Assembly (NCBI GenBank): GCA_043826435.1
Contig: JBDRQF010000011.1
Coordinates: 7,025-71,024 of the forward strand
From: Elusimicrobiota bacterium
Lineage (GTDB): Bacteria > Elusimicrobiota > Endomicrobiia > CG1-02-37-114 > JAHJSO01
Direction: 5' to 3'
DNA: 64,000 nucleotides
The first letter of the stretch is position 1, and each line of letters begins with the position of its first letter. The notes beneath the pieces were generated by a model. That model did no database searches, was not told the DNA's origin, and saw only the letters and a program-made list of their open reading frames with translations. The position numbers and the translations under genes are program-made. Below, piece after piece: positions 20,865-64,000 of the stretch.

Positions 20865-21558
20865 TTTTTTGACAGACACACAAAAGCGACATTCCTGCGG
20901 GCGGCGTAATTATTTTTTCAAACTTTGCAATGAACGGCACAAACTTGTCAAATATCAACGGCTGCAGGATTGAGAATTTTTTTCTTTTCAGCAGCCGGCC
21001 GTTTAAGTACCATCCGAATATGCCGGGAAAGTTGCTGTAATTTATTTTCTTAATTTCAAAACCGGCGTTCTTTACCTTGTCGGAAAGGCCATTTTTGTCG
21101 TAGCGCCTGCAATGAGACAGAAAACGGTCCATCGTGCCGTACAGGGATGACATAGCGGGGACAAAGAGTATAAGTTTTCCCCCCGGGTCAAGGATGTCGT
21201 AAATATTTTTGAGCGACTGAACGTCGTTTTCAACGTGCTCAAGGACGTTGATGCAGACGATGGTGTCAAATTTTTCCGGGAATTTTTGATAGATATATTT
21301 GTCTGAAATATCGGCGCAAATAAAATTTATCGCCTGCCAGTCAATTTTCATGTGCCGGATGTAGGTATCTTCCCTGTCAAGGCAGGTCAGGTTTGTTATG
21401 TCTTTTAAATAACCGGTAATGTTCCCTGTGCCGCAGCCGACCTCAAGGGTCCTTTTGCCTACGTGTGGAAGGATCATATCAAAAATCCACTTGTTGTAAT
21501 TGTGTGCGAGTGCAAACGTTTTTAACACGTTTGATGCATAATCATAATTCATAGACAT
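20854..21558 (-). CDS. Class I SAM-dependent methyltransferase
   Basis: TLEVGCGTGNITGYL (motif I) and DTIVCINVLEHVEND (motif II/post II). Start moved to the internal MSMNYDY to remove a 128-nt overlap. Confidence 0.8.
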   Translation of the reverse strand: MSMNYDYASNVLKTFALAHNYNKWIFDMILPHVGKRTLEVGCGTGNITGYLKDITNLTCLDREDTYIRHMKIDWQAINFICADISDKYIYQKFPEKFDTIVCINVLEHVENDVQSLKNIYDILDPGGKLILFVPAMSSLYGTMDRFLSHCRRYDKNGLSDKVKNAGFEIKKINYSNFPGIFGWYLNGRLLKRKKFSILQPLIFDKFVPFIAKFEKIITPPAGMSLLCVCQKNEK

Positions 21559-23245
21559 ATATTTCAGGCCCTTTTGACGGCGCCGTTTGCCGTTTGCCGC
21601 CGTCCGTTTTATCGGGGAATTGTTTAAGTATCCGGGCGTTCTTTTCAACCCCGGTATAAAAGTCAACAATACCCTTATCCCGTGAATTTAATCCTGAATG
21701 CCTCGCCCAGGAATTCAGTACCAGGTACCGGATGCCCTTTTTTCGCAGGTATTTAAAACCGGGGGCAACGTCAACCAGGTCCTGCATTTTCTCCGCTTCT
21801 TCAACGACATATTTTATCCCGCTGACCTCTGCCGGCGGGCGATAGACCCTGTAAATCTCATAACCGTAATTTCCGTCCGGGTGGGCCTCCAGCAGGAGTT
21901 TTAGGTATTCCTTTTTATAATGGTTCAGCAGGGCCGCCCTGTCGTACAGCCGTTCAAGTTGGGTTTTCGTTTCCTTTATGGGCGGCGAGAAAGGGTACAG
22001 GTCAACAAGGACGGCGGCGCCGTGTGGCAGGTTTTTGTAAATCCACTCTTTTGCAATCGTCCGGTTATCTTTAAGCGTGTAGATATAACCGGTTTTGAGG
22101 CAGAGTATAACGGATGGGGTAAGGACTATGAGAAATGCCAGGATAAATGCCGGGGTGCTCAGTGAAGACGATTTTATTTTGCCGGCAAGTTTATCGGCGA
22201 GCCATCCACCCGCAAGCGCAAGGAACGGGAATGCAGGAAATAAATAACCGATACCGGGGCTGTGATAAAATACCACGGGTATTGAAAACAACGCGACGGG
22301 AACCATCAGGAGAAATCCTTTGGACAACAGCCATATCGCGCCTGCAAGGCACAGCATCCCTGCAAACGGCGGTCCCTGCGGCGGCGTCACGTGTCCCCTG
22401 TTCCCCATAAACAGGATGTTTGAAAAGACCTCCCTGATGTTGATTAATATGCTTGCCGGCGGAGTGCTCGCATGCGCAAAAAAATCCCTTCTGAAAGTGG
22501 CGAAGTCAAGGACGCTGTAAGGGGTGCCTGCTATAAAGGTTACCAGGACGATAGACAGCCCTAACCACAGCCGGGCGTCGGAAAGGGCCGCTATTTTTTT
22601 GTTACGCACAAAATAGACAACGGGCAGCATCACGACCATAGGTATTGCGTTGTAAAAGATTGATATTGATATGCCAAGGGATATACAGGACAGGTAGAAA
22701 TTTTTGTTTTTGCCCTCCATGTAGAATAACGCCAGGAAATAAAACGAAAGGACAAGGAAAAATAAACTCGGCTGGCTCGGCCGTATCTCGTGAGCTGAGA
22801 TTAATACCGAAGGGATGCAGGTAAACAACGCTGCGGCGCAAAGCCCCGCCTTTTTATTGAAGAGGAGTTTTCCCGTTTTATACACCAAAAGGGCCGCGCC
22901 CGTCGTCCACAAGACGGAGAATATCCGGAGCGTCAAATAGACGCCGCTTGGGTCTTTTACAAAGGATATTGCGAATTCCTGCGTGCTTGAGAATGCGCCG
23001 GCAATCCTTCCAATGATAAAATAAATCCCACATACAAAAAAGGTGAAATACAGATACAGGGACGGGTAGTTGAAAAAATGAGGGTTCAGGTCGCCCGTGC
23101 CGAACCTTAAGGCGTAATTCACCACCTTGTACTCCTCGGTGGTGTATATGTGGGGTAAATCATAGTTAATCCCCCACAGGCCCAGTGCCAGAGATGCGAG
23201 CATTATACAGACCGGCAAAATGTTATTTTTCAGGATACCATTCAT
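21542..23245 (-). CDS. GT-C family membrane glycosyltransferase (GT39/PMT_2/ArnT-like)
   Basis: 567 aa with at least 11 TM helices. The first-loop acidic motif YTTEEYKVVNYA and the topology with a C-terminal soluble domain fit PMT_2. Confidence 0.65.
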   Translation of the reverse strand: MNGILKNNILPVCIMLASLALGLWGINYDLPHIYTTEEYKVVNYALRFGTGDLNPHFFNYPSLYLYFTFFVCGIYFIIGRIAGAFSSTQEFAISFVKDPSGVYLTLRIFSVLWTTGAALLVYKTGKLLFNKKAGLCAAALFTCIPSVLISAHEIRPSQPSLFFLVLSFYFLALFYMEGKNKNFYLSCISLGISISIFYNAIPMVVMLPVVYFVRNKKIAALSDARLWLGLSIVLVTFIAGTPYSVLDFATFRRDFFAHASTPPASILINIREVFSNILFMGNRGHVTPPQGPPFAGMLCLAGAIWLLSKGFLLMVPVALFSIPVVFYHSPGIGYLFPAFPFLALAGGWLADKLAGKIKSSSLSTPAFILAFLIVLTPSVILCLKTGYIYTLKDNRTIAKEWIYKNLPHGAAVLVDLYPFSPPIKETKTQLERLYDRAALLNHYKKEYLKLLLEAHPDGNYGYEIYRVYRPPAEVSGIKYVVEEAEKMQDLVDVAPGFKYLRKKGIRYLVLNSWARHSGLNSRDKGIVDFYTGVEKNARILKQFPDKTDGGKRQTAPSKGPEIYVYEL

Positions 23246-44521: not shown

Positions 44522-45958
44522 TTATGCCCCGCCCGACTTTTTAAAAATTTTTACCGATTTAATTAATTGCAAGTTGAACCTTATCATTTCGCCTGTTTTC
44601 ATCCTGTACAATTTGAATACGTAGTTGTAAAGATAGATTACGGAGAAAATAGCGTCGTATATAAAGGTGAGCGGCAGTTTAATCAGAATCTTTATCAACG
44701 GGAACAGCCGGGGGAACCGCGCGGCTATCAAAAAAAATTTCTGCAGGTTGACGAGTTGCCTTATATTATCCTGCTTTATGACGCTCCGTTTCAGATAGAA
44801 CTCGGGGATACTGTCAAGGTTAAAACCGTCCTCAACAAAACCGTTCCGGATTGCAAAATCCCCTGCCTCGGTCCCGGGGTATGGGGTAAAAATAGAACAC
44901 CATGGATATGTTGATTTTATCTTCTGGTTGAGGGTTACCGTCTCATACGCCTCTTCAAGCGTTTCCCCCGGCAGGCCCACCATGTTGAATGTTTTAAATT
45001 CAATACCGTATTTGCGCAGCAGGTCGGCGGTATTGGTAATCTGGTGGTTTGTGATATTTTTCTTTAGCACGTTTTGTCTTATTAATTCATTTCCGTGTTC
45101 AATGCCGAATGATACGGCAAAACAGGAACTCATTTTTAACTCCCTGACAATTTCTTCGGTTACCAGGTTCGCCCTCAGGTTGCAGTGGAACGGCAGGTTT
45201 ATGCGTTTGCGGTATAACTCAAGAAACTTAAACAGCCAGGATGTGTTCAGAATAAACGTGTCGTCATGAAAATGGACCCGTTCAAGCGGCCGGGTTCCCC
45301 TGTATTCTTCTATTTCGTTTACGACGTTCTCCGGGCTCCTGTACCTGACATATTTCCCTTCCTGCAAAGTTGATGCCGCCCGGTTAAAACAGAAACTGCA
45401 CTTATACGGGCAGCCCCTTGAGGCGATGAAGAAAGCCATTGTGCTTTTTCTGAAATAGGTATATCTGTCATAGTGCGAGCGGTCCGGGAACGGCAGGGTG
45501 TTAAGATCACCTACAAGAGGCCTTGTATTGTTTGCGATAATCCTGCCGTCTTCTTTTGTTGAAAGGTTTAATATCTTTTTTATTTCTTTGCGTCCGTCTA
45601 TGGCGTCAAGCAGTTCCAACGTTGCGAGTTCCCCTTCACCCCTGCAGATTATATCAACCTGCGGTTTTTCCAGTACAGGCGGATAAAATGTCGGGTGCGG
45701 GCCGCCGAAGACCGTCAATATATTTTTGAACCTCTCCTTTATCGATGCGGATACGTTCAGCGTCCACCTGTGCGCCCCTGTGATGCAGTAAAAACCAACC
45801 ACGTCGGGCGAGAAATTTTTAACCTCGTCAATAATTTTGCGGGTGTCGGGCTCAATGATTATCCTGGATTCGTGTCCCTTTGATTTCACGTAGGACGAAA
45901 TCCACATCGGGCCCGCCAGGTCAACCCATATATTCTGGACAAAAATTATCCTTGCCAT
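44522..45958 (-). CDS. B12-binding radical SAM protein (copy 2)
   Basis: Cobalamin-binding domain (...VFGGPHPTFYP...) plus SRGCPYKCSFCFN. 478 aa. Confidence 0.85.
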   Translation of the reverse strand: MARIIFVQNIWVDLAGPMWISSYVKSKGHESRIIIEPDTRKIIDEVKNFSPDVVGFYCITGAHRWTLNVSASIKERFKNILTVFGGPHPTFYPPVLEKPQVDIICRGEGELATLELLDAIDGRKEIKKILNLSTKEDGRIIANNTRPLVGDLNTLPFPDRSHYDRYTYFRKSTMAFFIASRGCPYKCSFCFNRAASTLQEGKYVRYRSPENVVNEIEEYRGTRPLERVHFHDDTFILNTSWLFKFLELYRKRINLPFHCNLRANLVTEEIVRELKMSSCFAVSFGIEHGNELIRQNVLKKNITNHQITNTADLLRKYGIEFKTFNMVGLPGETLEEAYETVTLNQKIKSTYPWCSIFTPYPGTEAGDFAIRNGFVEDGFNLDSIPEFYLKRSVIKQDNIRQLVNLQKFFLIAARFPRLFPLIKILIKLPLTFIYDAIFSVIYLYNYVFKLYRMKTGEMIRFNLQLIKSVKIFKKSGGA

Positions 45959-51088: not shown

Positions 51089-51964
51089 TTATCGGTTCCC
51101 CTTAAGCATCCGGGTGATTTTCAGCACAGGCATCTTCCACAGTCGCAGGATGGCAGCGAGAATTATCCATGCAATAATGCCGTAGTGTTTCCTGTAGTAA
51201 TACAAGAAACTGTTGTCAAATATCTTTTCTTTTTTTTCTCTGCCAAGTTTATCCATGGACACGCCCCAGTGGTGTATGACCTGTGCATCTGCAACAAAAA
51301 AAATCTTCCAGCCATGTTTTTTTATTTTATGACACCAGTCAATTTCTTCAAAATACGCAGTAAAATTTTCGTCCAACAATCCCACCTGTTGAATAACTTC
51401 TTTTCTAACCAGCAGGCAGGCACCACTGACCGAATCAACTTCTCTTGTGTCTTCCCTATTCCAGTCAAAAAGTGTGCGGTTTTTCTTAACAATATTATTC
51501 GGAAATAAAGTATTCAATAGACCGACCTCAAACAGCCCCCATAAAAATGTTGGAAATTTTTCTCCTGACCACTGGTGTCGTCCTTGCCGGTCAATCAATT
51601 TTGGACCACACGCTCTGCAACGCAATTCAGTGTCCATAAAATTGACCATCCTGCCGAGTGCATTATCTAAAATAACAGTATCAGGATTTAATAACAACAG
51701 ATATCTCCCGGTAGAATTTTTTAGTGCCTGATTGTGGGCTTTTGTAAAAAAGAAGTTTTCCTGATTGACAATCAATTTCACATCCGGAAATTTTTGTTTA
51801 AGCATCTCCGCACTTCCGTCCCCAGATGCATTATCAACCACTATAATTTCGTATTTGATGTTTTTTGTATTTTGATAAATGGAAGATAAGCATTCTTCTA
51901 AAAATTTTTTTGTATTGTAGTTTACAATTGTAATTGATAAATCAAGCATTGCCTTTGGACCCAA
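51089..51964 (-). CDS. Glycosyltransferase family 2
   Basis: LSITIVNYNTKKFL...IIVVDNASGDGS GT-A signature. 291 aa. Confidence 0.8.
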   Translation of the reverse strand: MGPKAMLDLSITIVNYNTKKFLEECLSSIYQNTKNIKYEIIVVDNASGDGSAEMLKQKFPDVKLIVNQENFFFTKAHNQALKNSTGRYLLLLNPDTVILDNALGRMVNFMDTELRCRACGPKLIDRQGRHQWSGEKFPTFLWGLFEVGLLNTLFPNNIVKKNRTLFDWNREDTREVDSVSGACLLVRKEVIQQVGLLDENFTAYFEEIDWCHKIKKHGWKIFFVADAQVIHHWGVSMDKLGREKKEKIFDNSFLYYYRKHYGIIAWIILAAILRLWKMPVLKITRMLKGNR

Positions 51965-52643
51965 TATCGGTCAAAACAAAAATAAACTGGTACCCGAAAA
52001 GTGTCGGGCAAAGAGAATAAATTTTTTTAAGAAATTTCCAGCCACCAGGTATTCTTAAAAATACTCCATGAAACCTTGGAATACCTTTATCGGGGTCAAT
52101 AGATAAGTGTTCTATTTTTAGCCCAGATGACTCAATCATTTCTTTTGCTGTCTTCAAAGTAAAAAATCTCAGATGTGTATTGTCCAGAATCCCATAGTCC
52201 TCATAATCAAATTTGCCAAAAAGCAACCGTACTCTAATTGAGAAGTGAGCAATATTTGGCAGTGTGATTATTACACGCCCCGCGGGAGCCAGAAATTTTT
52301 TTATTTTTTGCAGCACTCCCAGAGGGTTTACTAAGTGTTCCAATACATTCATACACAGGATAAAATCAAATTTCCGGTCTATTTGCTGAAGTATTTGTTC
52401 ATTTTCAATGTTTCCCACCAGTATTTTCTGATAATATGGCTTTGCCATTTCTGCCGAGTCAGGGTCAATTTCAACTCCCCAAGACTCGCAGTTCACTTTT
52501 TCTTTCAGGTATTTTCCGATATAACCGGTGGCACACCCGATTTCAAGTACTTTGGAATTTGGTTTGACTAATTTTACTACCTGATAGTCAGTCCACAACG
52601 GACAGATTTTATCTATATCATAATTTTGGCGATGGTATTTCAT
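51942..52643 (-). CDS. Class I SAM-dependent methyltransferase
   Basis: VLEIGCATGYIGKYL (motif I) and DFILCMNVLEHL (motif II). ATGA overlap with the downstream small ORF. Confidence 0.8.
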   Translation of the reverse strand: MKYHRQNYDIDKICPLWTDYQVVKLVKPNSKVLEIGCATGYIGKYLKEKVNCESWGVEIDPDSAEMAKPYYQKILVGNIENEQILQQIDRKFDFILCMNVLEHLVNPLGVLQKIKKFLAPAGRVIITLPNIAHFSIRVRLLFGKFDYEDYGILDNTHLRFFTLKTAKEMIESSGLKIEHLSIDPDKGIPRFHGVFLRIPGGWKFLKKIYSLCPTLFGYQFIFVLTDIGSKGNA

Positions 52644-53070
52644 TGTTTTGTTTCTAATGCTTCGTCTATTTTACTAATCAAGTATTCAAAATTCTTATCA
52701 GAGTAATATTTCCGCATTCCTGCTTCAAGAATTGAACCAAGTGCGACCCTATAGTCGGTTATCTTGAATGATTTTATTATATTTTTTATCCTGATTAAAT
52801 TTTCTTTTTTTGTATTCAGGGGTATCCCCCGCCTCAATAAAAATTCTATATCAAAACAATCTCTGACCTCACCCCTGTTTAAGAATGTCTCTATTTTGTT
52901 TTTCATCATTTGTTCAAGTGTTGCACTTCCTTATTGAACTTGGGAGTTTAAATAAGTCATTTTATCAATGTTTGTTAGTTAACAATTTTGTTAACTAGTT
53001 ATACTTAATAATTTTTTAATTGTCAATACCCTTTTGAGATAATGTCGTAATTTTGGCGATGGTATTTCAT
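52622..53070. repeat. 22-bp perfect direct repeat (AATTTTGGCGATGGTATTTCAT) at 52622-52643 and 53049-53070, flanking a ~427-bp segment
   Basis: Both copies include the TGA/ATG (tcat) overlap. The second copy encodes a vestigial MKYHRQNYDIISKGY* reading frame that duplicates the methyltransferase start. Confidence 0.7.
52640..52909 (-). CDS. Hypothetical 89-aa protein carried on a ~427-bp insert
   Basis: ORF only, with no recognisable motif. It lies inside a segment bounded by 22-bp direct repeats. Confidence 0.35.
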   Translation of the reverse strand: MMKNKIETFLNRGEVRDCFDIEFLLRRGIPLNTKKENLIRIKNIIKSFKITDYRVALGSILEAGMRKYYSDKNFEYLISKIDEALETKQ

Positions 53071-53975
53071 CGTTTAACCGTCCTCAGAATTTCTTCTGCC
53101 CGGTGGTCATAGGTGTGTTTTAAAACAACTTCTCTATGTCCTGTCAGAGCAATCTCCTCTCGTTCTGTTTCGTGTTTCAGGTAATAGTCAATTTTTTCCA
53201 ACAGGTCATTCCCATTATCATATAAAACCAGATGTTTTTTATCTTGGAAAAGTTCTTCCAGTCCTGCTTCCAGTTTTAACCGGTCAGTGATAAGTAAACT
53301 TCCACAAGAAAGCGCTTCGAAAACACGCATATTCAAATCACCCCTTATACTTTTATTGAAAACTATCTTTGCTTGACTATATATTTTAGCCATATCTTCA
53401 CCGAATATTCCTGGAAATACTTGGATATTAAATTTCTGACCAATCAATTTTAACAATGTAACTCTCTCTGGATAAACCATAGGATTGGTGTTACCTACAA
53501 ATACAACATCATAAATTTTGGGCAATTCATATTTTCTATGTATTTCGTGGTCACATGCAACTGGCAACCATTGACTACTATTCCCAAATTTGCACATATA
53601 GTTTTTATGGCAGGAGAAAACATAAGAAAAATCGTTTTTTAAATAGGTGTGAAATTTTATTTTATCTGGTTCATGGGTATCTAATGACCATAATATCGCA
53701 GGGATACTAAGTTTGTTGAATCCTATTAGATGATATTGGCCAGCGGAATCAACTTCAACAATAATGTCAAACGATTTTTTCATTTTTTTTATCACCGATT
53801 GAACATAAACAGGAAGACCTTTAGGAATAAAAAATGGTAGATGGTTGTATAAATTAGTCCAGTATGGCGTTTTACCCAAATCAAAACTTTCCACAAAATG
53901 TTTTTTTCTTAATGCTTTTTCTAAATACATTCCAGTTGTCCAGGGAATTTTATTATATGCCAGAAATATGTTCAT
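53067..53975 (-). CDS. CgeB-like / GT-B C-terminal-domain glycosyltransferase candidate
   Basis: 302 aa. The C-terminal region (VFVGN...ERV..L...G..VFPG..., FEALSCGSLLITD) resembles the CgeB/GT1 C-terminal domain. Confidence 0.45.
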   Translation of the reverse strand: MNIFLAYNKIPWTTGMYLEKALRKKHFVESFDLGKTPYWTNLYNHLPFFIPKGLPVYVQSVIKKMKKSFDIIVEVDSAGQYHLIGFNKLSIPAILWSLDTHEPDKIKFHTYLKNDFSYVFSCHKNYMCKFGNSSQWLPVACDHEIHRKYELPKIYDVVFVGNTNPMVYPERVTLLKLIGQKFNIQVFPGIFGEDMAKIYSQAKIVFNKSIRGDLNMRVFEALSCGSLLITDRLKLEAGLEELFQDKKHLVLYDNGNDLLEKIDYYLKHETEREEIALTGHREVVLKHTYDHRAEEILRTVKR

Positions 53976-55543
53976 TTTTTTATTAAATCTGCTCTTTGTT
54001 TACAGTTTTGGTATTCAACAATTTCCCTGATTTTGTCTTCAACACATTCATATCTTAATTTTGTATCCGATAAAACTTCAGCCAAAAAAAGTTTATTTTT
54101 TTCTGCAAGTTTCAAGTAATTATGCAAGGTTAAACTTCTTAGTTGTCTATGAAATTCTGTATGCAATCTTTCTAAATCTAAAATACTAAAACTTTCAGTT
54201 CCAATCAGTGAGGTGCCAGATATGAGTGACCTATAATTTTCGTTTTCAAGTGAAACTTGCAGATAATTTTTTTCTTTACATATTTGATATAACTTTGTTC
54301 CAACATATGGCATAGCAATATGAATATAAGGATAAACACCATATTTTTCAAGCATCTCTAAAGTAAAATCTATAGTTTGTTTAATATTGTCAATGGTTTC
54401 TCCAGGAAATCCAAAAACATAGAATGCTCGTAGGTCTATACCTAAATCTTGACACCATTGAGCACACTGAATAACTTTTTTCAAATCCAGTCGTTTGTGT
54501 ATTATTTTATCAAGTACACCTTGATTGCCTGATTCAACTCCTATAATAAGATATGTACATTTAGATTTTTTTATTTTCTTCAAAATTTCTAAACTAAGAC
54601 CGTCGGCTCGCAATCCATTTGGTGTATCCCAGGTAATCCCTGAGTTAAGATGAATTATGCCGTCAACTATTTTCTCAAATCTTTTAATGTCAATATTGAT
54701 AGTGTCATCCTCAAAGTGTATGTGTTTTACGTCGTACTCTTCGGTAACAAATTTGATATAATTTAAGACATACTTTGCAGAATGAGGTCTCCATTTTCTG
54801 CCCATATGTAAATGCACAGAACAAAAAATACAATTATAAGGACAACCTCGACTTGTAATCATTGGAATACATCTTTCCGAACCAGGATAATTATATCTGC
54901 CTCTTATTTCAAATCCAAGTTCTTGTGCTTTGAAATATTTCTCCAACCGGATGAGATGATATGCAGGATAAGGTAAATCGTCTAAGTTTGAAATTGGTTC
55001 ACGGATTCCGTTATTTATGATTTTACCGTCCATACTACGATAAGTAATTCCTTTAATTTTTTGCAAAGATTTTTTACCATTATAGGCATCAATTATATCT
55101 AATATAACATATTCTCCTTCTCGCATAACAACAATATCAATAGCGTTTGATAACTTCAAAAAAGATTCCGGGCAAACAGAAGCATGTGGTCCACCAACTA
55201 TAGTTAGGATATTTTTATTGGCTGATTTCACAACTTCTGCTACTCTTACAGCATTAAATATTTGTGCACTAAATTGATTGGTAATGCCAACAACATCGGG
55301 GTTTTTATGTTGAATAACTTTTTTTAATTCAGTTATCCAATGTTTCTCTACAAATTCTTTATTTGCGTATGTATTTAATAATTTATGGTCAGCAAAATCT
55401 ACTCTTGCATCAAAAACTTCTACTTGATAACCATTTTTTTCCAACACACCGGCTATGTAAAGAATCCCTAACGGTAAATCCAATTGAAATCCTCGTAAAT
55501 TTTCACCATAACTTGAAGGCGGTCTGACAAGAAGTATTTTCTT
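53972..55543 (-). CDS. B12-binding radical SAM protein (copy 3)
   Basis: MKKILLVRPP...PLGILYIAGVL cobalamin-domain N-terminus, ...GGPHAS... and SRGCPYNCIFCSVH. Start is likely the internal MKKILLV. Confidence 0.85.
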   Translation of the reverse strand, partial: KKILLVRPPSSYGENLRGFQLDLPLGILYIAGVLEKNGYQVEVFDARVDFADHKLLNTYANKEFVEKHWITELKKVIQHKNPDVVGITNQFSAQIFNAVRVAEVVKSANKNILTIVGGPHASVCPESFLKLSNAIDIVVMREGEYVILDIIDAYNGKKSLQKIKGITYRSMDGKIINNGIREPISNLDDLPYPAYHLIRLEKYFKAQELGFEIRGRYNYPGSERCIPMITSRGCPYNCIFCSVHLHMGRKWRPHSAKYVLNYIKFVTEEYDVKHIHFEDDTINIDIKRFEKIVDGIIHLNSGITWDTPNGLRADGLSLEILKKIKKSKCTYLIIGVESGNQGVLDKIIHKRLDLKKVIQCAQWCQDLGIDLRAFYVFGFPGETIDNIKQTIDFTLEMLEKYGVYPYIHIAMPYVGTKLYQICKEKNYLQVSLENENYRSLISGTSLIGTESFSILDLERLHTEFHRQLRSLTLHNYLKLAEKNKLFLAEVLSDTKLRYECVEDKIREIVEYQNCKQRADLIKK

Positions 55544-55605
55544 CATATATCCATTTATCTTTTTTCGCAAAAAATTACCTCGTTAATCTATTTTGTCAGG
55601 GTGGT

Positions 55606-56358
55606 TTAATCCTGATCACAACCTTGTTTAGAAGCAACTGTAATAAAAACACTTCCGTACATGAAAGAAATTGCTCGTTTATCAATTAAAGCAATAAACC
55701 TTTTTACAAAATCCTTAATTTTATTACCAGTAAGAGGAATTTTAGGAACTAATTTGCAAAATTCTACTTTAAGCCCACTTTCAGTAAGAATTCCTTTCAT
55801 CTTTTCCTCATCAAACGATGCTAAATGTTCTGAAGGAGGAAAAACAGCATAACAATCCGGACAGACAACTTTTTGAATATTTTCTTTATAGGGAACAGTA
55901 ATTATAACTTTCCCCAACGGCTTTAGAACTCTTTTTATTTCTTTAAGCCCTTTTTCAAGAGTGTCCGGCAAAAGATGTTCTAATACCTCAGTCACAAACA
56001 CATAATCAAAAAAACATGTCACAAGCGGCAAATTTGTTATACTCCCCTCTTTAAGAATAATATTTTTATTTAAAGAACTAAATTTTTCTTTTAGACTTTT
56101 TATATTTTGGCGAGAAACATCACATCCATAGACTTCAAATCCTATATTATAAAGTTCATCCATAAGTGTCCCTATTCCACATCCTATATCAAGGGCCTTT
56201 CCAGGCAACCTAAAAAACTTTTTTACATTTTTAATAACACATTTATAAAAATCTGCTGGCAAAAACATACCTTCAGAGAGTTCCGGCAATGTTTCATACA
56301 TTTCCCATAAACTTTTTATTTTTTCTTCGGCCCATTCTACTTCGTGAATTTTTTTCAT
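55606..56358 (-). CDS. Class I SAM-dependent methyltransferase
   Basis: ALDIGCGIGTLMDEL (motif I) and DYVFVTEVLEHL. C-terminal CPDC suggests a small Zn-ribbon-like insertion. Confidence 0.8.
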   Translation of the reverse strand: MKKIHEVEWAEEKIKSLWEMYETLPELSEGMFLPADFYKCVIKNVKKFFRLPGKALDIGCGIGTLMDELYNIGFEVYGCDVSRQNIKSLKEKFSSLNKNIILKEGSITNLPLVTCFFDYVFVTEVLEHLLPDTLEKGLKEIKRVLKPLGKVIITVPYKENIQKVVCPDCYAVFPPSEHLASFDEEKMKGILTESGLKVEFCKLVPKIPLTGNKIKDFVKRFIALIDKRAISFMYGSVFITVASKQGCDQD

Positions 56359-56385
56359 TTACCGGAGGCCCCCTTAACTATCTTT

Positions 56386-56526
56386 TTAAAACTTTATGAG
56401 ATGCCTGTTTTCAAGGACGGCTGCGAGATATAACAGCCCGAGCGGAGGCAGGTAAGAGCCGACTTTTGTAAGCCCACCGTACCTCTCTTCCCCTAACATA
56501 GGCGGAAAAACCAGAAGTATTTTCAT
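56386..56526 (-). pseudogene. Remnant N-terminal fragment (46 aa) of a B12-binding radical SAM gene
   Basis: Minus-strand translation MKILLVFPPMLGEERYGGLTKVGSYLPPLGLLYLAAVLENRHLIKF* matches the conserved N-terminus of the B12-rSAM paralogs (MKKILLVRPP...PLGILYIAGVL). The fragment is GC-richer than its flanks. Confidence 0.6.
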
Positions 56527-61259: not shown

Positions 61260-62681
61260 TCATCCTTTCGCCTCTGTTTTTTGTTTCATTATTATTTTTT
61301 TAATAAGAAGGAAGTCATCAATTGTTAATAGTCTGAGTGATATAATATATACGGCAAATACAGGGATGGACACGCTTAAATGGGACAGAAGCCCGGTTAT
61401 TATACTTAAGGATAAACCAAGTAAAAGTAGCAGGTTTGTTTTTATGAGAGGTATCTTATATTTTGATATTACTATGGTTATTATTATTGTCTGGATTGTT
61501 AAACCGGCAATCGCGCTGATGGCGGGACCTGTGGATTTAAACGCCGGTATCAGCCAGAAGTTTAATGAAGTGGAAATGATGAAATAGATAAAACCCGCGG
61601 CTATAACCAGGAACGGCCTGTTTATCGAGTAGAAAAATGGGCCGAAGAACGCCTGGAGCCCGAACAAAAAAAGAGTAAATGAATATATTTGAGTAACCTT
61701 TATACTTTCAGCATAAACATTGGTGAACAGTAGGGGAATTATTTTATCGGCGAAACTGAAGATCACAAGGGATATAAAACCGAATGCAATGCCGAGCGTC
61801 TTGCTGCCGAATTGGACGATTTTTTCCTTTGTTTCTACGGTGTCGGGATGTGAAAAATAATACAGGAACGGGACAGGGAGAGATGCGAGCGATAATGATT
61901 CTATTAACTGGGGGACTCTCAGTCCGGCAGAGTAATAACCGACATCAACCGGGTTTTTTAACAGAACCCTTAGCATCACATAGTGCAGTGTTGTTAATAA
62001 GATAAATAATATTTGTCCGACAAACATTGCGAGTCCGAAATTGAATATGTCTTTCCTGATATTCAGGTTGGTGAAGCCAAGATTTTTCCTTATGAATACA
62101 AAATTTATTGCTATAAAGAACAACATTACGAAAAACATGTTGTATATGACGGTTTTAAAACTGTTTGATATAAGGACGATAATTATTATTGAGATGGCCC
62201 GCCAGAAAAATTCATAAGCGCCCTCCAGTATGGACCATTTCAGGAATTTGCCCAGTCCGCGGTAAACCCCCTGGAATATGTTTATAAAAGCATAAAGCAG
62301 TATAAGAAACAGGAATATATTTTTAATTTCCCTGATTTCAATCGGGTACAATTTTGGGAACTTATTTATGCTGAATACAAAAAACAGCGAGAATAGGAGG
62401 AAAGCGATAAAGGTTATTTCAAATGACTGGGAACAAAGATTTTTTTTCTCGTTTTGATTGTTTATTTCGGGCAGGAATCTTGAAAGCGTGCCGGAAAAGC
62501 CGAAACTCAATAACAACCCGATGGTTACTATCAGCTGGGTTACAAGTGAAAATCTGCCATATTCGTCCGGCCCAAGGAGCCGTACCACAAAAATAGACAG
62601 AAATCCGGACAATACCTGAAAAAATATCTTCAATACAAAATATTTTGAACTGGAATGAAATATTTCGGAGTATTTTGACAT
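61260..62681 (-). CDS. Wzx-like oligosaccharide flippase (MOP superfamily, polysaccharide biosynthesis protein family)
   Basis: 473 aa with about 12-14 TM helices. The N-terminus VLKIFFQVLSGFLSIFVVRLLGPDEYGRFSL is typical of PST/Wzx-family exporters. Confidence 0.7.
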   Translation of the reverse strand: MSKYSEIFHSSSKYFVLKIFFQVLSGFLSIFVVRLLGPDEYGRFSLVTQLIVTIGLLLSFGFSGTLSRFLPEINNQNEKKNLCSQSFEITFIAFLLFSLFFVFSINKFPKLYPIEIREIKNIFLFLILLYAFINIFQGVYRGLGKFLKWSILEGAYEFFWRAISIIIIVLISNSFKTVIYNMFFVMLFFIAINFVFIRKNLGFTNLNIRKDIFNFGLAMFVGQILFILLTTLHYVMLRVLLKNPVDVGYYSAGLRVPQLIESLSLASLPVPFLYYFSHPDTVETKEKIVQFGSKTLGIAFGFISLVIFSFADKIIPLLFTNVYAESIKVTQIYSFTLFLFGLQAFFGPFFYSINRPFLVIAAGFIYFIISTSLNFWLIPAFKSTGPAISAIAGLTIQTIIITIVISKYKIPLIKTNLLLLLGLSLSIITGLLSHLSVSIPVFAVYIISLRLLTIDDFLLIKKIIMKQKTEAKG

Positions 62682-64000
62682 TACTTGTTATAGGGGACTT
62701 TTTTTATTAACGGTGACACCAGTTGTTTCTGCCTGCCGACAAACTTTATTAAACGGCTCAAACCCGCCGCCAACCCGTATAGGTTTAATCTGATAAAAAT
62801 CCTGAACAAGTTTCCCAACAGTTTATTCGCTATTTTTTCAAGACGTTCTCTCCCGCCTAAAAAATTCTTAAAACTTTTTGCATCTAGCCAGGTTGCGACA
62901 TAAGCCATTTCTTTTACAAACTCAAATTTTTTGCTGTCGTCCTGCAGCCATGGATAAAGTTTTGATTCCCACGCCTCATAATCAAATTTGACCCAGTCCT
63001 CCATTTTTTCAGGGGGCTTAAATCCATACTGTTTCGCAACCTCAAACAATTCCATCCCGGGATACAGGGTGACCATCATCAATTGTGTTATGTAGGCGGA
63101 CGGATTGTCTTCAAGCAGCCGGTTAATCAGTTTAATTGTTAATTTCACGTCCTCTATGGTTTCCGTCGGGAACCCTGCCATGAAGCCGAACCTTGCCGTG
63201 ATTCCGACTTCCCTCAATTTTTTATTTACTTCAATCACCTGTTCCACCGTTATGTCTTTTTTTATGTCATTTAGTATCTTTGCCGAGCCGGACTCTACCC
63301 CGATGTATATTTCAACAAAACCGGCTCTCTTAAGCAGTTTCAGGTAATCCATGGAAAAACAATAAAGGTAATTCGCCCTGCAGCCACTGGTAAGTTTTAT
63401 TGAAATGTTTTTTTCGATGATAAGCCCACATATTTCCGTCGCACGGTCAAAATCGGCAAAAAAATTGTCATCCAGTAACTGGATCGTTGATATTTCCGGG
63501 TTTTTGACTAAATATTCAATGTGGGGCAAAACAGATTTCGGTTCTATTGCCCGGTGTTTCCTGAAATTAAACGCAACGTTGTAGCAGAAACCGCACCTGT
63601 GCGGGCAACCTCTGCTGGTAAAAATTGGGAACAGTCCGTTAATTATATAATCGTTGACGTTTATCAGACCATAATTCGGTATTGGAGATTTATTGAGATT
63701 TGCAAACCCGCAGGGCTGATTTACAATAATTTTGCCTTTTTCCCTGTATCCAATCCCCTTCATCTTTTTGATGGCTTCAGGGTTGCCCAGGTTTTTAAGC
63801 AATTCAACGAACGTTTCTTCACCGTCGCCGATAACAACGTAATCCACAAATTCATTTTGCAGCGTGTCGTCGGGCATCAGGGAAGGGTGTACACCCCCTA
63901 AAATGACAGGAATGGCACTGTCAATAGTTTTTATGAATTTCGCTACTTCAAGGGCGGATTTAATCTGATAACCGCTCATGGCGCTCAGCCCCACGGCGTA
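62681..64000 (-). CDS. B12-binding radical SAM protein (copy 4; N-terminus runs off the window)
   Basis: ...PVILGGVHPSL... cobalamin-domain motif and TSRGCPHRCGFCYN. The frame is open through position 64000. Confidence 0.8.
   Translation of the reverse strand, partial: YAVGLSAMSGYQIKSALEVAKFIKTIDSAIPVILGGVHPSLMPDDTLQNEFVDYVVIGDGEETFVELLKNLGNPEAIKKMKGIGYREKGKIIVNQPCGFANLNKSPIPNYGLINVNDYIINGLFPIFTSRGCPHRCGFCYNVAFNFRKHRAIEPKSVLPHIEYLVKNPEISTIQLLDDNFFADFDRATEICGLIIEKNISIKLTSGCRANYLYCFSMDYLKLLKRAGFVEIYIGVESGSAKILNDIKKDITVEQVIEVNKKLREVGITARFGFMAGFPTETIEDVKLTIKLINRLLEDNPSAYITQLMMVTLYPGMELFEVAKQYGFKPPEKMEDWVKFDYEAWESKLYPWLQDDSKKFEFVKEMAYVATWLDAKSFKNFLGGRERLEKIANKLLGNLFRIFIRLNLYGLAAGLSRLIKFVGRQKQLVSPLIKKVPYNK

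Follow-up and report, generated by a model that had tools for sequence, protein, structure and literature searches.

A probable remnant of an AbiE toxin-antitoxin cassette at the glycosyltransferase-methyltransferase junction of an Elusimicrobiota surface-glycan cluster

The AbiE system is composed of the antitoxin AbiEi and the nucleotidyltransferase toxin AbiEii and is assigned to the type IV toxin-antitoxin (TA) and abortive infection systems. The operon is autoregulated, in that AbiEi binds to promoter-overlapping inverted repeats and represses expression (PMC7319586; PMC3985639). A survey of Photorhabdus described the erosion of chromosomal TA systems and proposed that TA islets spread via recombination in the flanking genes (PMC13617665). 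Here a stretch of 64,000 nucleotides (nt) from an Elusimicrobiota bacterium (assembly GCA_043826435.1, contig JBDRQF010000011.1, positions 7,025 to 71,024; hereafter the window) was analysed, in which a short insert separates the genes of a CgeB-like glycosyltransferase (GT) and of a class I S-adenosylmethionine (SAM)-dependent methyltransferase (MT) in a surface-glycan cluster. The work of Mine and colleagues from 2009, cited in the Photorhabdus survey, reportedly concerns ccdO157 between folA and apaH in Escherichia coli. The insert is most probably the eroded remnant of an AbiE cassette, which would have entered by homology to the MT 5' end, undergone exchange at a short repeat of the MT start (R), and been reduced by a single deletion.

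The insert carries an open reading frame (ORF) of 89 amino acids (aa; 52640-52909), whose stop codon overlaps the MT start codon and which is located, like GT and MT, on the minus strand. Pfam and NCBIfam scans of this fragment gave no match; the PADLOC AbiEii model PDLC02330 was matched at positions 135-218/219 with an E value of 4.9e-32, and the homologues P0003 and P0004, which are longer proteins, carry the AbiEii domain PF08843, also matched by the AbiEii protein of cassette A in the related locus L011 (related loci are designated by L numbers). The homology continues upstream of the ORF start codon (SATLEQ preceding MMKNK) and crosses an in-frame TAA at 52931-52933, and in tblastn residues 120-219 of the L011 protein are aligned to window positions 52954-52655 with 58% identity. 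Because the model is matched in part and the homology runs upstream through a stop, the ORF is the 3' third of abiEii devoid of the nucleotidyltransferase domain: residues ~120-219 of 219 alone are left, and the N-terminal catalytic domain of a complete toxin is missing. In annotation the 89-aa "hypothetical protein" should read AbiEii pseudogene fragment.

The remaining AT-rich stretch of 157 nt (52910-53066) contains a perfect 10+2+10 palindrome, TAGTTAACAATTTTGTTAACTA. In minus-strand order this core consists of TTGACA, 17 nt, TATAAC, the palindrome TAGTTAACAAAATTGTTAACTA, and then ATGACTTATTTAAAC, and in an alignment with intact cassettes its columns coincide with their promoter, palindrome, and AbiEi start (M-N/D/T-Y); the promoter part corresponds to TTGACA-17-TATAAT in the intact L011 and L014 and to the relics in L019 and L027. 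A sigma-70 scan reported no promoter on the minus strand and no terminator, the promoter relic being missed because its -10 hexamer TATAAC is devoid of the final T. Both the position and the sequence of the palindrome, after the -10 box and before the abiEi start, are conserved across all A-type cassettes, and together with the known autoregulation by AbiEi this makes it best read as a presumed AbiEi operator. The inverted repeat of the original prediction is present, while the attC-like nature considered there is not supported by its operator position.

Of the abiEi antitoxin gene, which is present in L011, L014, and L017, the start codons alone are left in the window. The internal deletion begins just past the residues MTYLN, and in the window lineage one deletion would join abiEi codon ~5 to abiEii residue ~120. 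Elsewhere in the window no second AbiE system including AbiEi, no further operator copy, and no further copy of R were found; Rfam gave a sub-threshold chance match only, and no tRNA genes were detected in the window. Judging from its sequence, the relic, having no antitoxin gene and no catalytic domain, is not a working AbiE system but is clearly AbiE-derived.

The insert is bracketed by two copies of R. As originally predicted, the 22-mer AATTTTGGCGATGGTATTTCAT is perfectly repeated at 52622-52643 and 53049-53070; it occurs exactly twice in the 64-kb window and is the core of a repeat that extends to 34 nt (31 of 34 identical, spacing 427) with a perfect part of 23 nt. No third site with up to 3 mismatches was found in the window, and a shuffle control (n=100) gave 0 matches. 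Each copy of R has an ATGA stop/start overlap. The first codons of MT form the downstream copy, and the N-terminus MKYHR(Q/E)NYDIDKICPLW is conserved family-wide; in the upstream copy the GT stop TGA (53067-53069) overlaps the ATG, and the predicted recreation of the ATGA overlap with a vestigial ORF of 15 codons was observed there. This ORF, MKYHRQNYDIISKGY followed by a stop, comprises the first 10 codons of an MT allele and then junction sequence, with the stop inside the -35 hexamer, and MT residues 1-10 are matched in tblastn by 53070-53041. The three mismatches on the MT side between the R copies (TAT/TAC, GAT/GAC, and ATA/ATT) are all at third codon positions, so that 10 residues are common to both copies. 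As a side observation, GT of the window ends at ATGA through one extra base before the ATG (AAACGATGA versus AAAAATGA; 53067-53075 versus L017:5455-5470), and the change of TAT GAT to TAC GAC in the vestigial R abolishes the TGA that ends GT in L008 and L017.

For an assembly artefact, i.e., a collapsed or chimeric repeat, nothing speaks beyond the presence of a repeat in metagenome-derived sequence. Three independent Logan assemblies, made from different sequencing runs, agree at 100% identity over the 701 nt spanning the structure, two additional assemblies contain the structure in part, and homologous architectures recur in several diverged lineages. The identity among independent assemblies indicates that the arrangement is real, and the probability of an artefact is negligible. 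The features of the locus are collected in Table 1.

Table 1. Features of the AbiE relic and of the genes next to it, in window coordinates.
Feature	Position	Strand	Basis
abiEii 3' third, cassette A	52640..52940	-	PADLOC AbiEii model; tblastn; homologues with PF08843
abiEi start relic, ATG ACT TAT TTA AAC = MTYLN	52946..52960	-	aligns with AbiEi starts M(N/D/T)Y of L011, L019, L026
Perfect palindrome TAGTTAACAAAATTGTTAACTA, presumed AbiEi operator	52976..52997	.	directly after -10 box
Cassette A promoter relic	52998..53026	-	TTGACA 53026-53021, 17-nt spacer, TATAAC 53003-52998
Upstream vestigial R, duplicated MT 5' end	53042..53075, perfect core 53048-53070	-	repeat search
Vestigial 15-codon ORF, MKYHRQNYDIISKGY and stop	53023..53070	-	opens in upstream R copy
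Downstream functional R, true MT start	52615..52648, perfect core 52621-52643	-	repeat search
CgeB-like glycosyltransferase GT, 302 aa	53067..53975	-	PF13524 E 1e-32; ORF coordinates
Class I SAM-dependent methyltransferase MT, 233 aa	51942..52643	-	PF13489 E 2e-21

The relatives used for comparison were Elusimicrobia metagenome-assembled genomes (MAGs) and metagenome contigs. A degenerate pattern for MKYHRQNYD identified 11 loci in genome and metagenome collections, and the contexts of MT homologues gave more; L009, which is cut 43 nt upstream of MT, was uninformative, and L016, which matched the pattern without MT or GT homology, was rejected as a chance match. The former direct coupling of GT and MT, supposed in the original prediction, is documented by empty sites: in L008 (an Elusimicrobia MAG), L012, L013, and L018 the two genes overlap by 26 nt with a single copy of R, so that the GT end YNSYEIPSPKL and its stop fall inside the MT start, and L029-31, which are more distant, have an overlap of 4 nt. 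In a separate observation, L012, L013, and L018, which are ~99% identical to L008, are devoid of 480 nt inside the CgeB-like GT (L008:5850-6329), leaving GT residues 1-68 and 232-300 alone, and this internal loss makes GT a pseudogene in part of the L008-like population.

Two kinds of intact cassettes were found at the same junction. L017 has the order GT, R, promoter, AbiEi (205 aa), AbiEii (237 aa), R, MT, i.e., cassette B alone, with R as a perfect 36-nt repeat; L011 and L014 have the order GT, cassette A (AbiEi 194 aa, AbiEii 219 aa), R', cassette B, R, MT. AbiEi and AbiEii of both cassettes were confirmed by PADLOC and Pfam, the genes are bicistronic and overlapping, and abiEii invariably ends with the TGA of the MT-start ATGA. 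The window relic is homologous to cassette A, which shares only ~30% identity with B and is roughly 1.3-1.4 kb long when intact. Vestigial R copies homologous to that of the window are located upstream of the cassettes in L017, L011, L014, and L019. The predicted insertion with duplication of the junction holds in so far as a duplicated MT start brackets the insert, but the inserted unit was a complete AbiE cassette of the length found intact in L011 and L014 rather than a 427-bp segment with a small gene, and the duplication, seen as the 34-nt R in the window, initially extended further into MT in at least one lineage (L019, 47 codons).

Cassette A alone is present in L015, in the order A, R, MT, and states of decay are found in L019, L020, L021, L022, L026, and L027. 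In L019 and L021 the GT tail is followed by a degenerate 47-codon MT 5' fragment, the A promoter and palindrome, the abiEi start, and only the last 22 abiEii codons; cassette A is frameshifted in L026, and L027 keeps the A promoter and palindrome only, plus a different inserted gene. The A tail (60-68% amino-acid identity) and MT (57-66%) have diverged in step, which suggests an old association followed by independent decay. No relatives of the window lineage at 68-100% MT identity were found in these collections. The different gene of L027 (L027:3240-3730), at the same GT-MT junction, encodes a 126-aa 23S_rRNA_IVP or bAvd-type four-helix-bundle protein (PF05635, PF22296), lies between heptamer runs in inverted orientation, (CAGTAAT)n on its upstream and GATTAC(A/T)G on its downstream side, and adjoins the A promoter/palindrome relic; it is a third kind of insertion at this junction.

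These decay states bear on the possibility that the 89-aa ORF, together with the promoter and palindrome upstream of it, forms a small gene that is functional and no dead relic, such as a domesticated AbiEii C-terminal domain or an ORF kept open for translational coupling to MT. Such a role would agree with 89 codons remaining open in DNA of 30% GC, with a stop that overlaps the MT start codon in ATGA where no obvious Shine-Dalgarno sequence precedes MT, with an identity of 60-62% to the intact A copies, which themselves share 68%, so that given the MT divergence the ORF is no more diverged than they are mutually, and with the retention of the promoter/palindrome relic in three independently decayed loci (window, L019, and L027). 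However, the nucleotidyltransferase domain is absent, the homology runs upstream past an in-frame stop, and the abiEii leftovers differ between loci (22 codons in L019, none in L027), so no particular fragment is conserved; P0002 of L006, which is likewise 89 aa long, is a first-ATG call in a differently truncated gene. A functional small gene is accordingly considered unlikely. Regarding L006 itself, positions 560-933 hold an independent, differently truncated AbiEii fragment that abuts a gene fragment on the opposite strand and is called as an 89-aa protein only through a conserved internal Met-Met; this case is a caution that equal ORF lengths are no evidence for a conserved small gene.

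The relatives also indicate how cassettes are gained and lost. L015 differs from L014 by the absence of exactly cassette B and one R; the two flanking alignments show 97.9% and 99.6% identity and have the 36 nt of R in common. When L017 is compared with L011, identity is ~45% left of the upstream R, 90-97% across abiEi-B, ~100% across abiEii-B (1 mismatch in ~850 nt), and ~75% from the downstream R into MT, and since the identity breaks at both R copies, cassette B has been exchanged between diverged lineages with breakpoints at R. The alternative offered in the original prediction, a recombination scar between cassettes, thus agrees with the behaviour of B, which was exchanged, gained, or lost at R. 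Within cassette B itself (L017:5520-6800 versus L011) a mosaic was observed, with an identity switch near L017 position 5945 between the abiEi and abiEii parts, which indicates a further breakpoint inside the cassette.

The conservation of R is uneven along MT. The first 30 nt of MT in five lineages are invariant at 28 of 30 positions and at 9 of 10 synonymous sites, while in later 30-nt bins 0-3 of 10 synonymous sites are invariant. In L008 and L017, where the 3' end of GT and the MT start share 26 nt, this conservation is explainable by dual coding; dual coding cannot explain the identity of R in the window and in L011, which points to homogenisation by exchange or conversion. It was also considered that the vestigial R was conserved by a former read-through of GT, as in L008 and L017, and this proposal is weakened by the distant empty site L029, where the overlap is 4 nt like that of the window. 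On these alignments the MT start behaves as a recurrent site of recombination.

It can be proposed that the cassettes entered by recombination with the MT 5' end as homology, and two routes are conceivable. In the first, a circle composed of a cassette and an MT 5' fragment would be integrated by Campbell-type single crossover with the chromosomal MT; in the second, a linear donor with cassette and MT would use homology in MT as its anchor, and the illegitimate junction would form within the MT 5' region of the recipient. Either route would give the order GT, MT' (vestigial), cassette, MT (complete), with MT coupled to abiEii through ATGA, and both explain why MT' measures at least 141 nt in L019, 36 nt in B, and ~30 nt in the window. 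Beyond the identity block the vestigial R differs by TAC, GAC, and ATT, of which TAC is common to the vestigial copy of L019 and the MT allele of L009; these synonymous differences suggest that the two R copies derive from different MT alleles. At the 26-nt GT/MT overlap only insertions that duplicate the overlap would keep both genes intact, which would act as a selective filter, and R would then provide a short, portable stretch of homology by which cassettes are gained, lost, and exchanged. The single deletion would have removed the antitoxin together with the catalytic domain of the toxin, i.e., a safe way of TA loss, and this joint loss matches the described pattern of chromosomal TA erosion (PMC13617665). 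The relic is most likely inert as a TA system, whereas its promoter and the ATGA coupling may contribute to the expression of MT and of the downstream GT genes.

Several points weigh against this scheme. The integration steps are deduced, as neither a circular form nor an excision product was seen. Two unrelated AbiE cassettes (~30% identity) both end exactly at the MT ATG with an ATGA overlap, which is a coincidence that neither plain homologous nor illegitimate recombination accounts for, and the same holds for the first capture of each cassette beside MT. The vestigial R of the window is perfect over 23 of 23 nt versus 8 mismatches in 36 nt in the L019 copy, though A looks old, and this combination requires gene conversion, recent re-exchange at R, or another constraint. 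Residual function is conceivable for the 89-codon ORF, which remains open and has diverged no further than the intact copies, and the -10 hexamer TATAAC failed the promoter scan, which makes continued promoter activity uncertain.

The exact ending of two unrelated cassettes at one site is what would be expected if the first ~36 nt of MT were a dedicated attachment site, at which integrase-less AbiE cassettes were inserted, stacked, and exchanged among Elusimicrobia lineages by a host recombinase acting in trans (integron-like, Xer/dif-module-like, or a small tyrosine recombinase), giving arrays of the order GT, R, [A], R, [B], R, MT. The tandem array with R between cassettes, the presence or absence of B that is precise at R, the identity breakpoints at R, the invariance of its synonymous sites in five lineages, and a B-type AbiE that adjoins a 188-aa tyrosine recombinase in another Elusimicrobia MAG (L036/L037) fit this proposal as well. 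If it were true, each cassette would bring a replacement gene start and couple the translation of the host gene to that of the toxin gene, and the whole would be a cassette system that resembles integrons but is devoid of their parts. But Pfam scans of ORFs of at least 150 aa showed no recombinase gene at 44.5-64 kb of the window, where all neighbours are glycan-synthesis genes, R has neither dyad symmetry nor an attC-like fold, and the duplicated MT length varies between L019, B, and the window, unlike a fixed crossover core. Moreover, the AbiE cassettes of L033 (upstream of DUF1805/mfd) and L036 show no duplicated start of the downstream gene, and the R conservation in L008 and L017 is explained by dual coding. 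A dedicated site of this type is thus improbable, if slightly less so than a functional small gene.

The AbiE locus with the recombinase deserves separate description. In Elusimicrobia bacterium ADurb.Bin231 (L036:2116-2682, L037:1514-2080) a B-type AbiEi/AbiEii pair is followed by the 188-aa PF00589 tyrosine recombinase and adjoins a threonyl-tRNA-synthetase-like gene; flanking direct repeats were not found at this locus, which may represent a mobilisable AbiE unit.

An insertion of transposon or insertion sequence (IS) type, with target-site duplication of the GT/MT junction, would also produce direct repeats around an insert that is absent from relatives. Neither a transposase nor terminal inverted repeats are present, the sole palindrome being internal and in the promoter; the cassettes contain abiEi and abiEii only, and the duplications, in the range of 23-36 nt but reaching at least 141 nt (single cases: ~30-34, 36, and at least 141 nt), are far too long and too variable for a transposase. 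This origin is very unlikely, and recombination at the MT 5' end remains the preferred explanation of the insert.

As to the wider neighbourhood, a block with a uniformly low GC content of 0.28-0.39 extends from about 51.6 to 56.4 kb, with steps to higher values near 51.1 kb and 56.4 kb. Contrary to the predicted coincidence with a GC shift, the junction (52.6-53.1 kb) is internal to this low-GC block and off its edges. The block (51600-56400) contains MT, the AbiE relic, GT, a radical-SAM gene, and a second MT, with 0.44-0.49 GC on either side, and may represent a sub-cassette by which the glycan locus takes part in horizontal exchange. All ORFs of at least 200 aa in the window (1-64000) are on the minus strand in one co-directional array. 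At 44-64 kb a glycan cluster is located, which contains three genes for B12-binding radical-SAM proteins (44522-45958, 53972-55570, and 62681-63994), several methyltransferases, GT2 and GT4 genes, a PMT_2 protein, a flippase, and an AsnB-like amidotransferase, and a distant MT paralogue with 25% identity is found at 20938-21567.

What had been an unexplained insert with a vestigial ORF can now be placed in a decay series of a defence/TA cassette at one locus, which includes empty, intact, tandem, truncated, and promoter-only states. The series illustrates a route for TA islets without mobility genes, namely gain, loss, and exchange by recombination at a very short and unusually conserved stretch, which is a duplicated gene start and is dual-coding in some lineages. 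As a relic at a recombination hot spot, the insert of the window is of an ordinary type. Both the erosion of TA systems and hot spots of recombination in glycan loci were known before, so that the general interest of the case is modest; the modestly interesting twist is the use of a ~36-nt gene-start repeat as the exchange point for defence cassettes.

Compared with known cassette systems, the locus is similar to integron arrays in having small promoter-bearing TA cassettes arranged head-to-tail with a recurring sequence between them. In contrast to integrons there is no IntI, attI, or attC-like structured site, which led to rejection of this reading: Pfam scans of ORFs of at least 150 aa at 44.5-64 kb showed glycan-synthesis genes only, the recurring sequence is the non-palindromic coding start of the downstream gene, and the sole palindrome is at the cassette 5' end in the promoter. 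The similarity to Campbell-type integration of phages and islands into the ends of tRNA or protein genes is closer, since the direct repeats likewise correspond to the target gene end (R brackets A and B and is single copy in L008, L012, L013, and L018), the displaced copy is vestigial while the functional gene is rebuilt, the empty sites are single-copy, and the sequence just past the identity block differs between the copies. The differences are that no integrase is encoded in the cassettes, which carry AbiEi and AbiEii only, or nearby, that the repeat length varies among events, and that the 5' end with the start codon is rebuilt here instead of the usual 3' end.

The AbiE systems of Streptococcus agalactiae and Lactococcus (PMC3985639, PMC7319586) share with the relatives the bicistronic abiEi-abiEii operon of overlapping genes and the inverted repeat over the promoter and transcription-start region, as in the described autoregulated promoters; in the window this relationship is seen in the homology to the AbiEii/DUF1814 nucleotidyltransferases and in the predicted inverted repeat that overlaps the promoter. 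Unlike them, the window has kept no more than the promoter/operator, a few abiEi codons, and roughly the final third of abiEii, and its presumed operator is a single 22-bp palindrome versus two 23-bp repeats. Finally, as in the described erosion of chromosomal TA systems (PMC13617665), related genomes show intact, truncated, remnant-only, and empty states of one locus, inactivation of the toxin accompanies or precedes that of the antitoxin, and the islet has no mobile-element genes; the homology used here differs in being a ~36-nt gene-start repeat and not whole core genes, and this repeat also separates the tandem cassettes.

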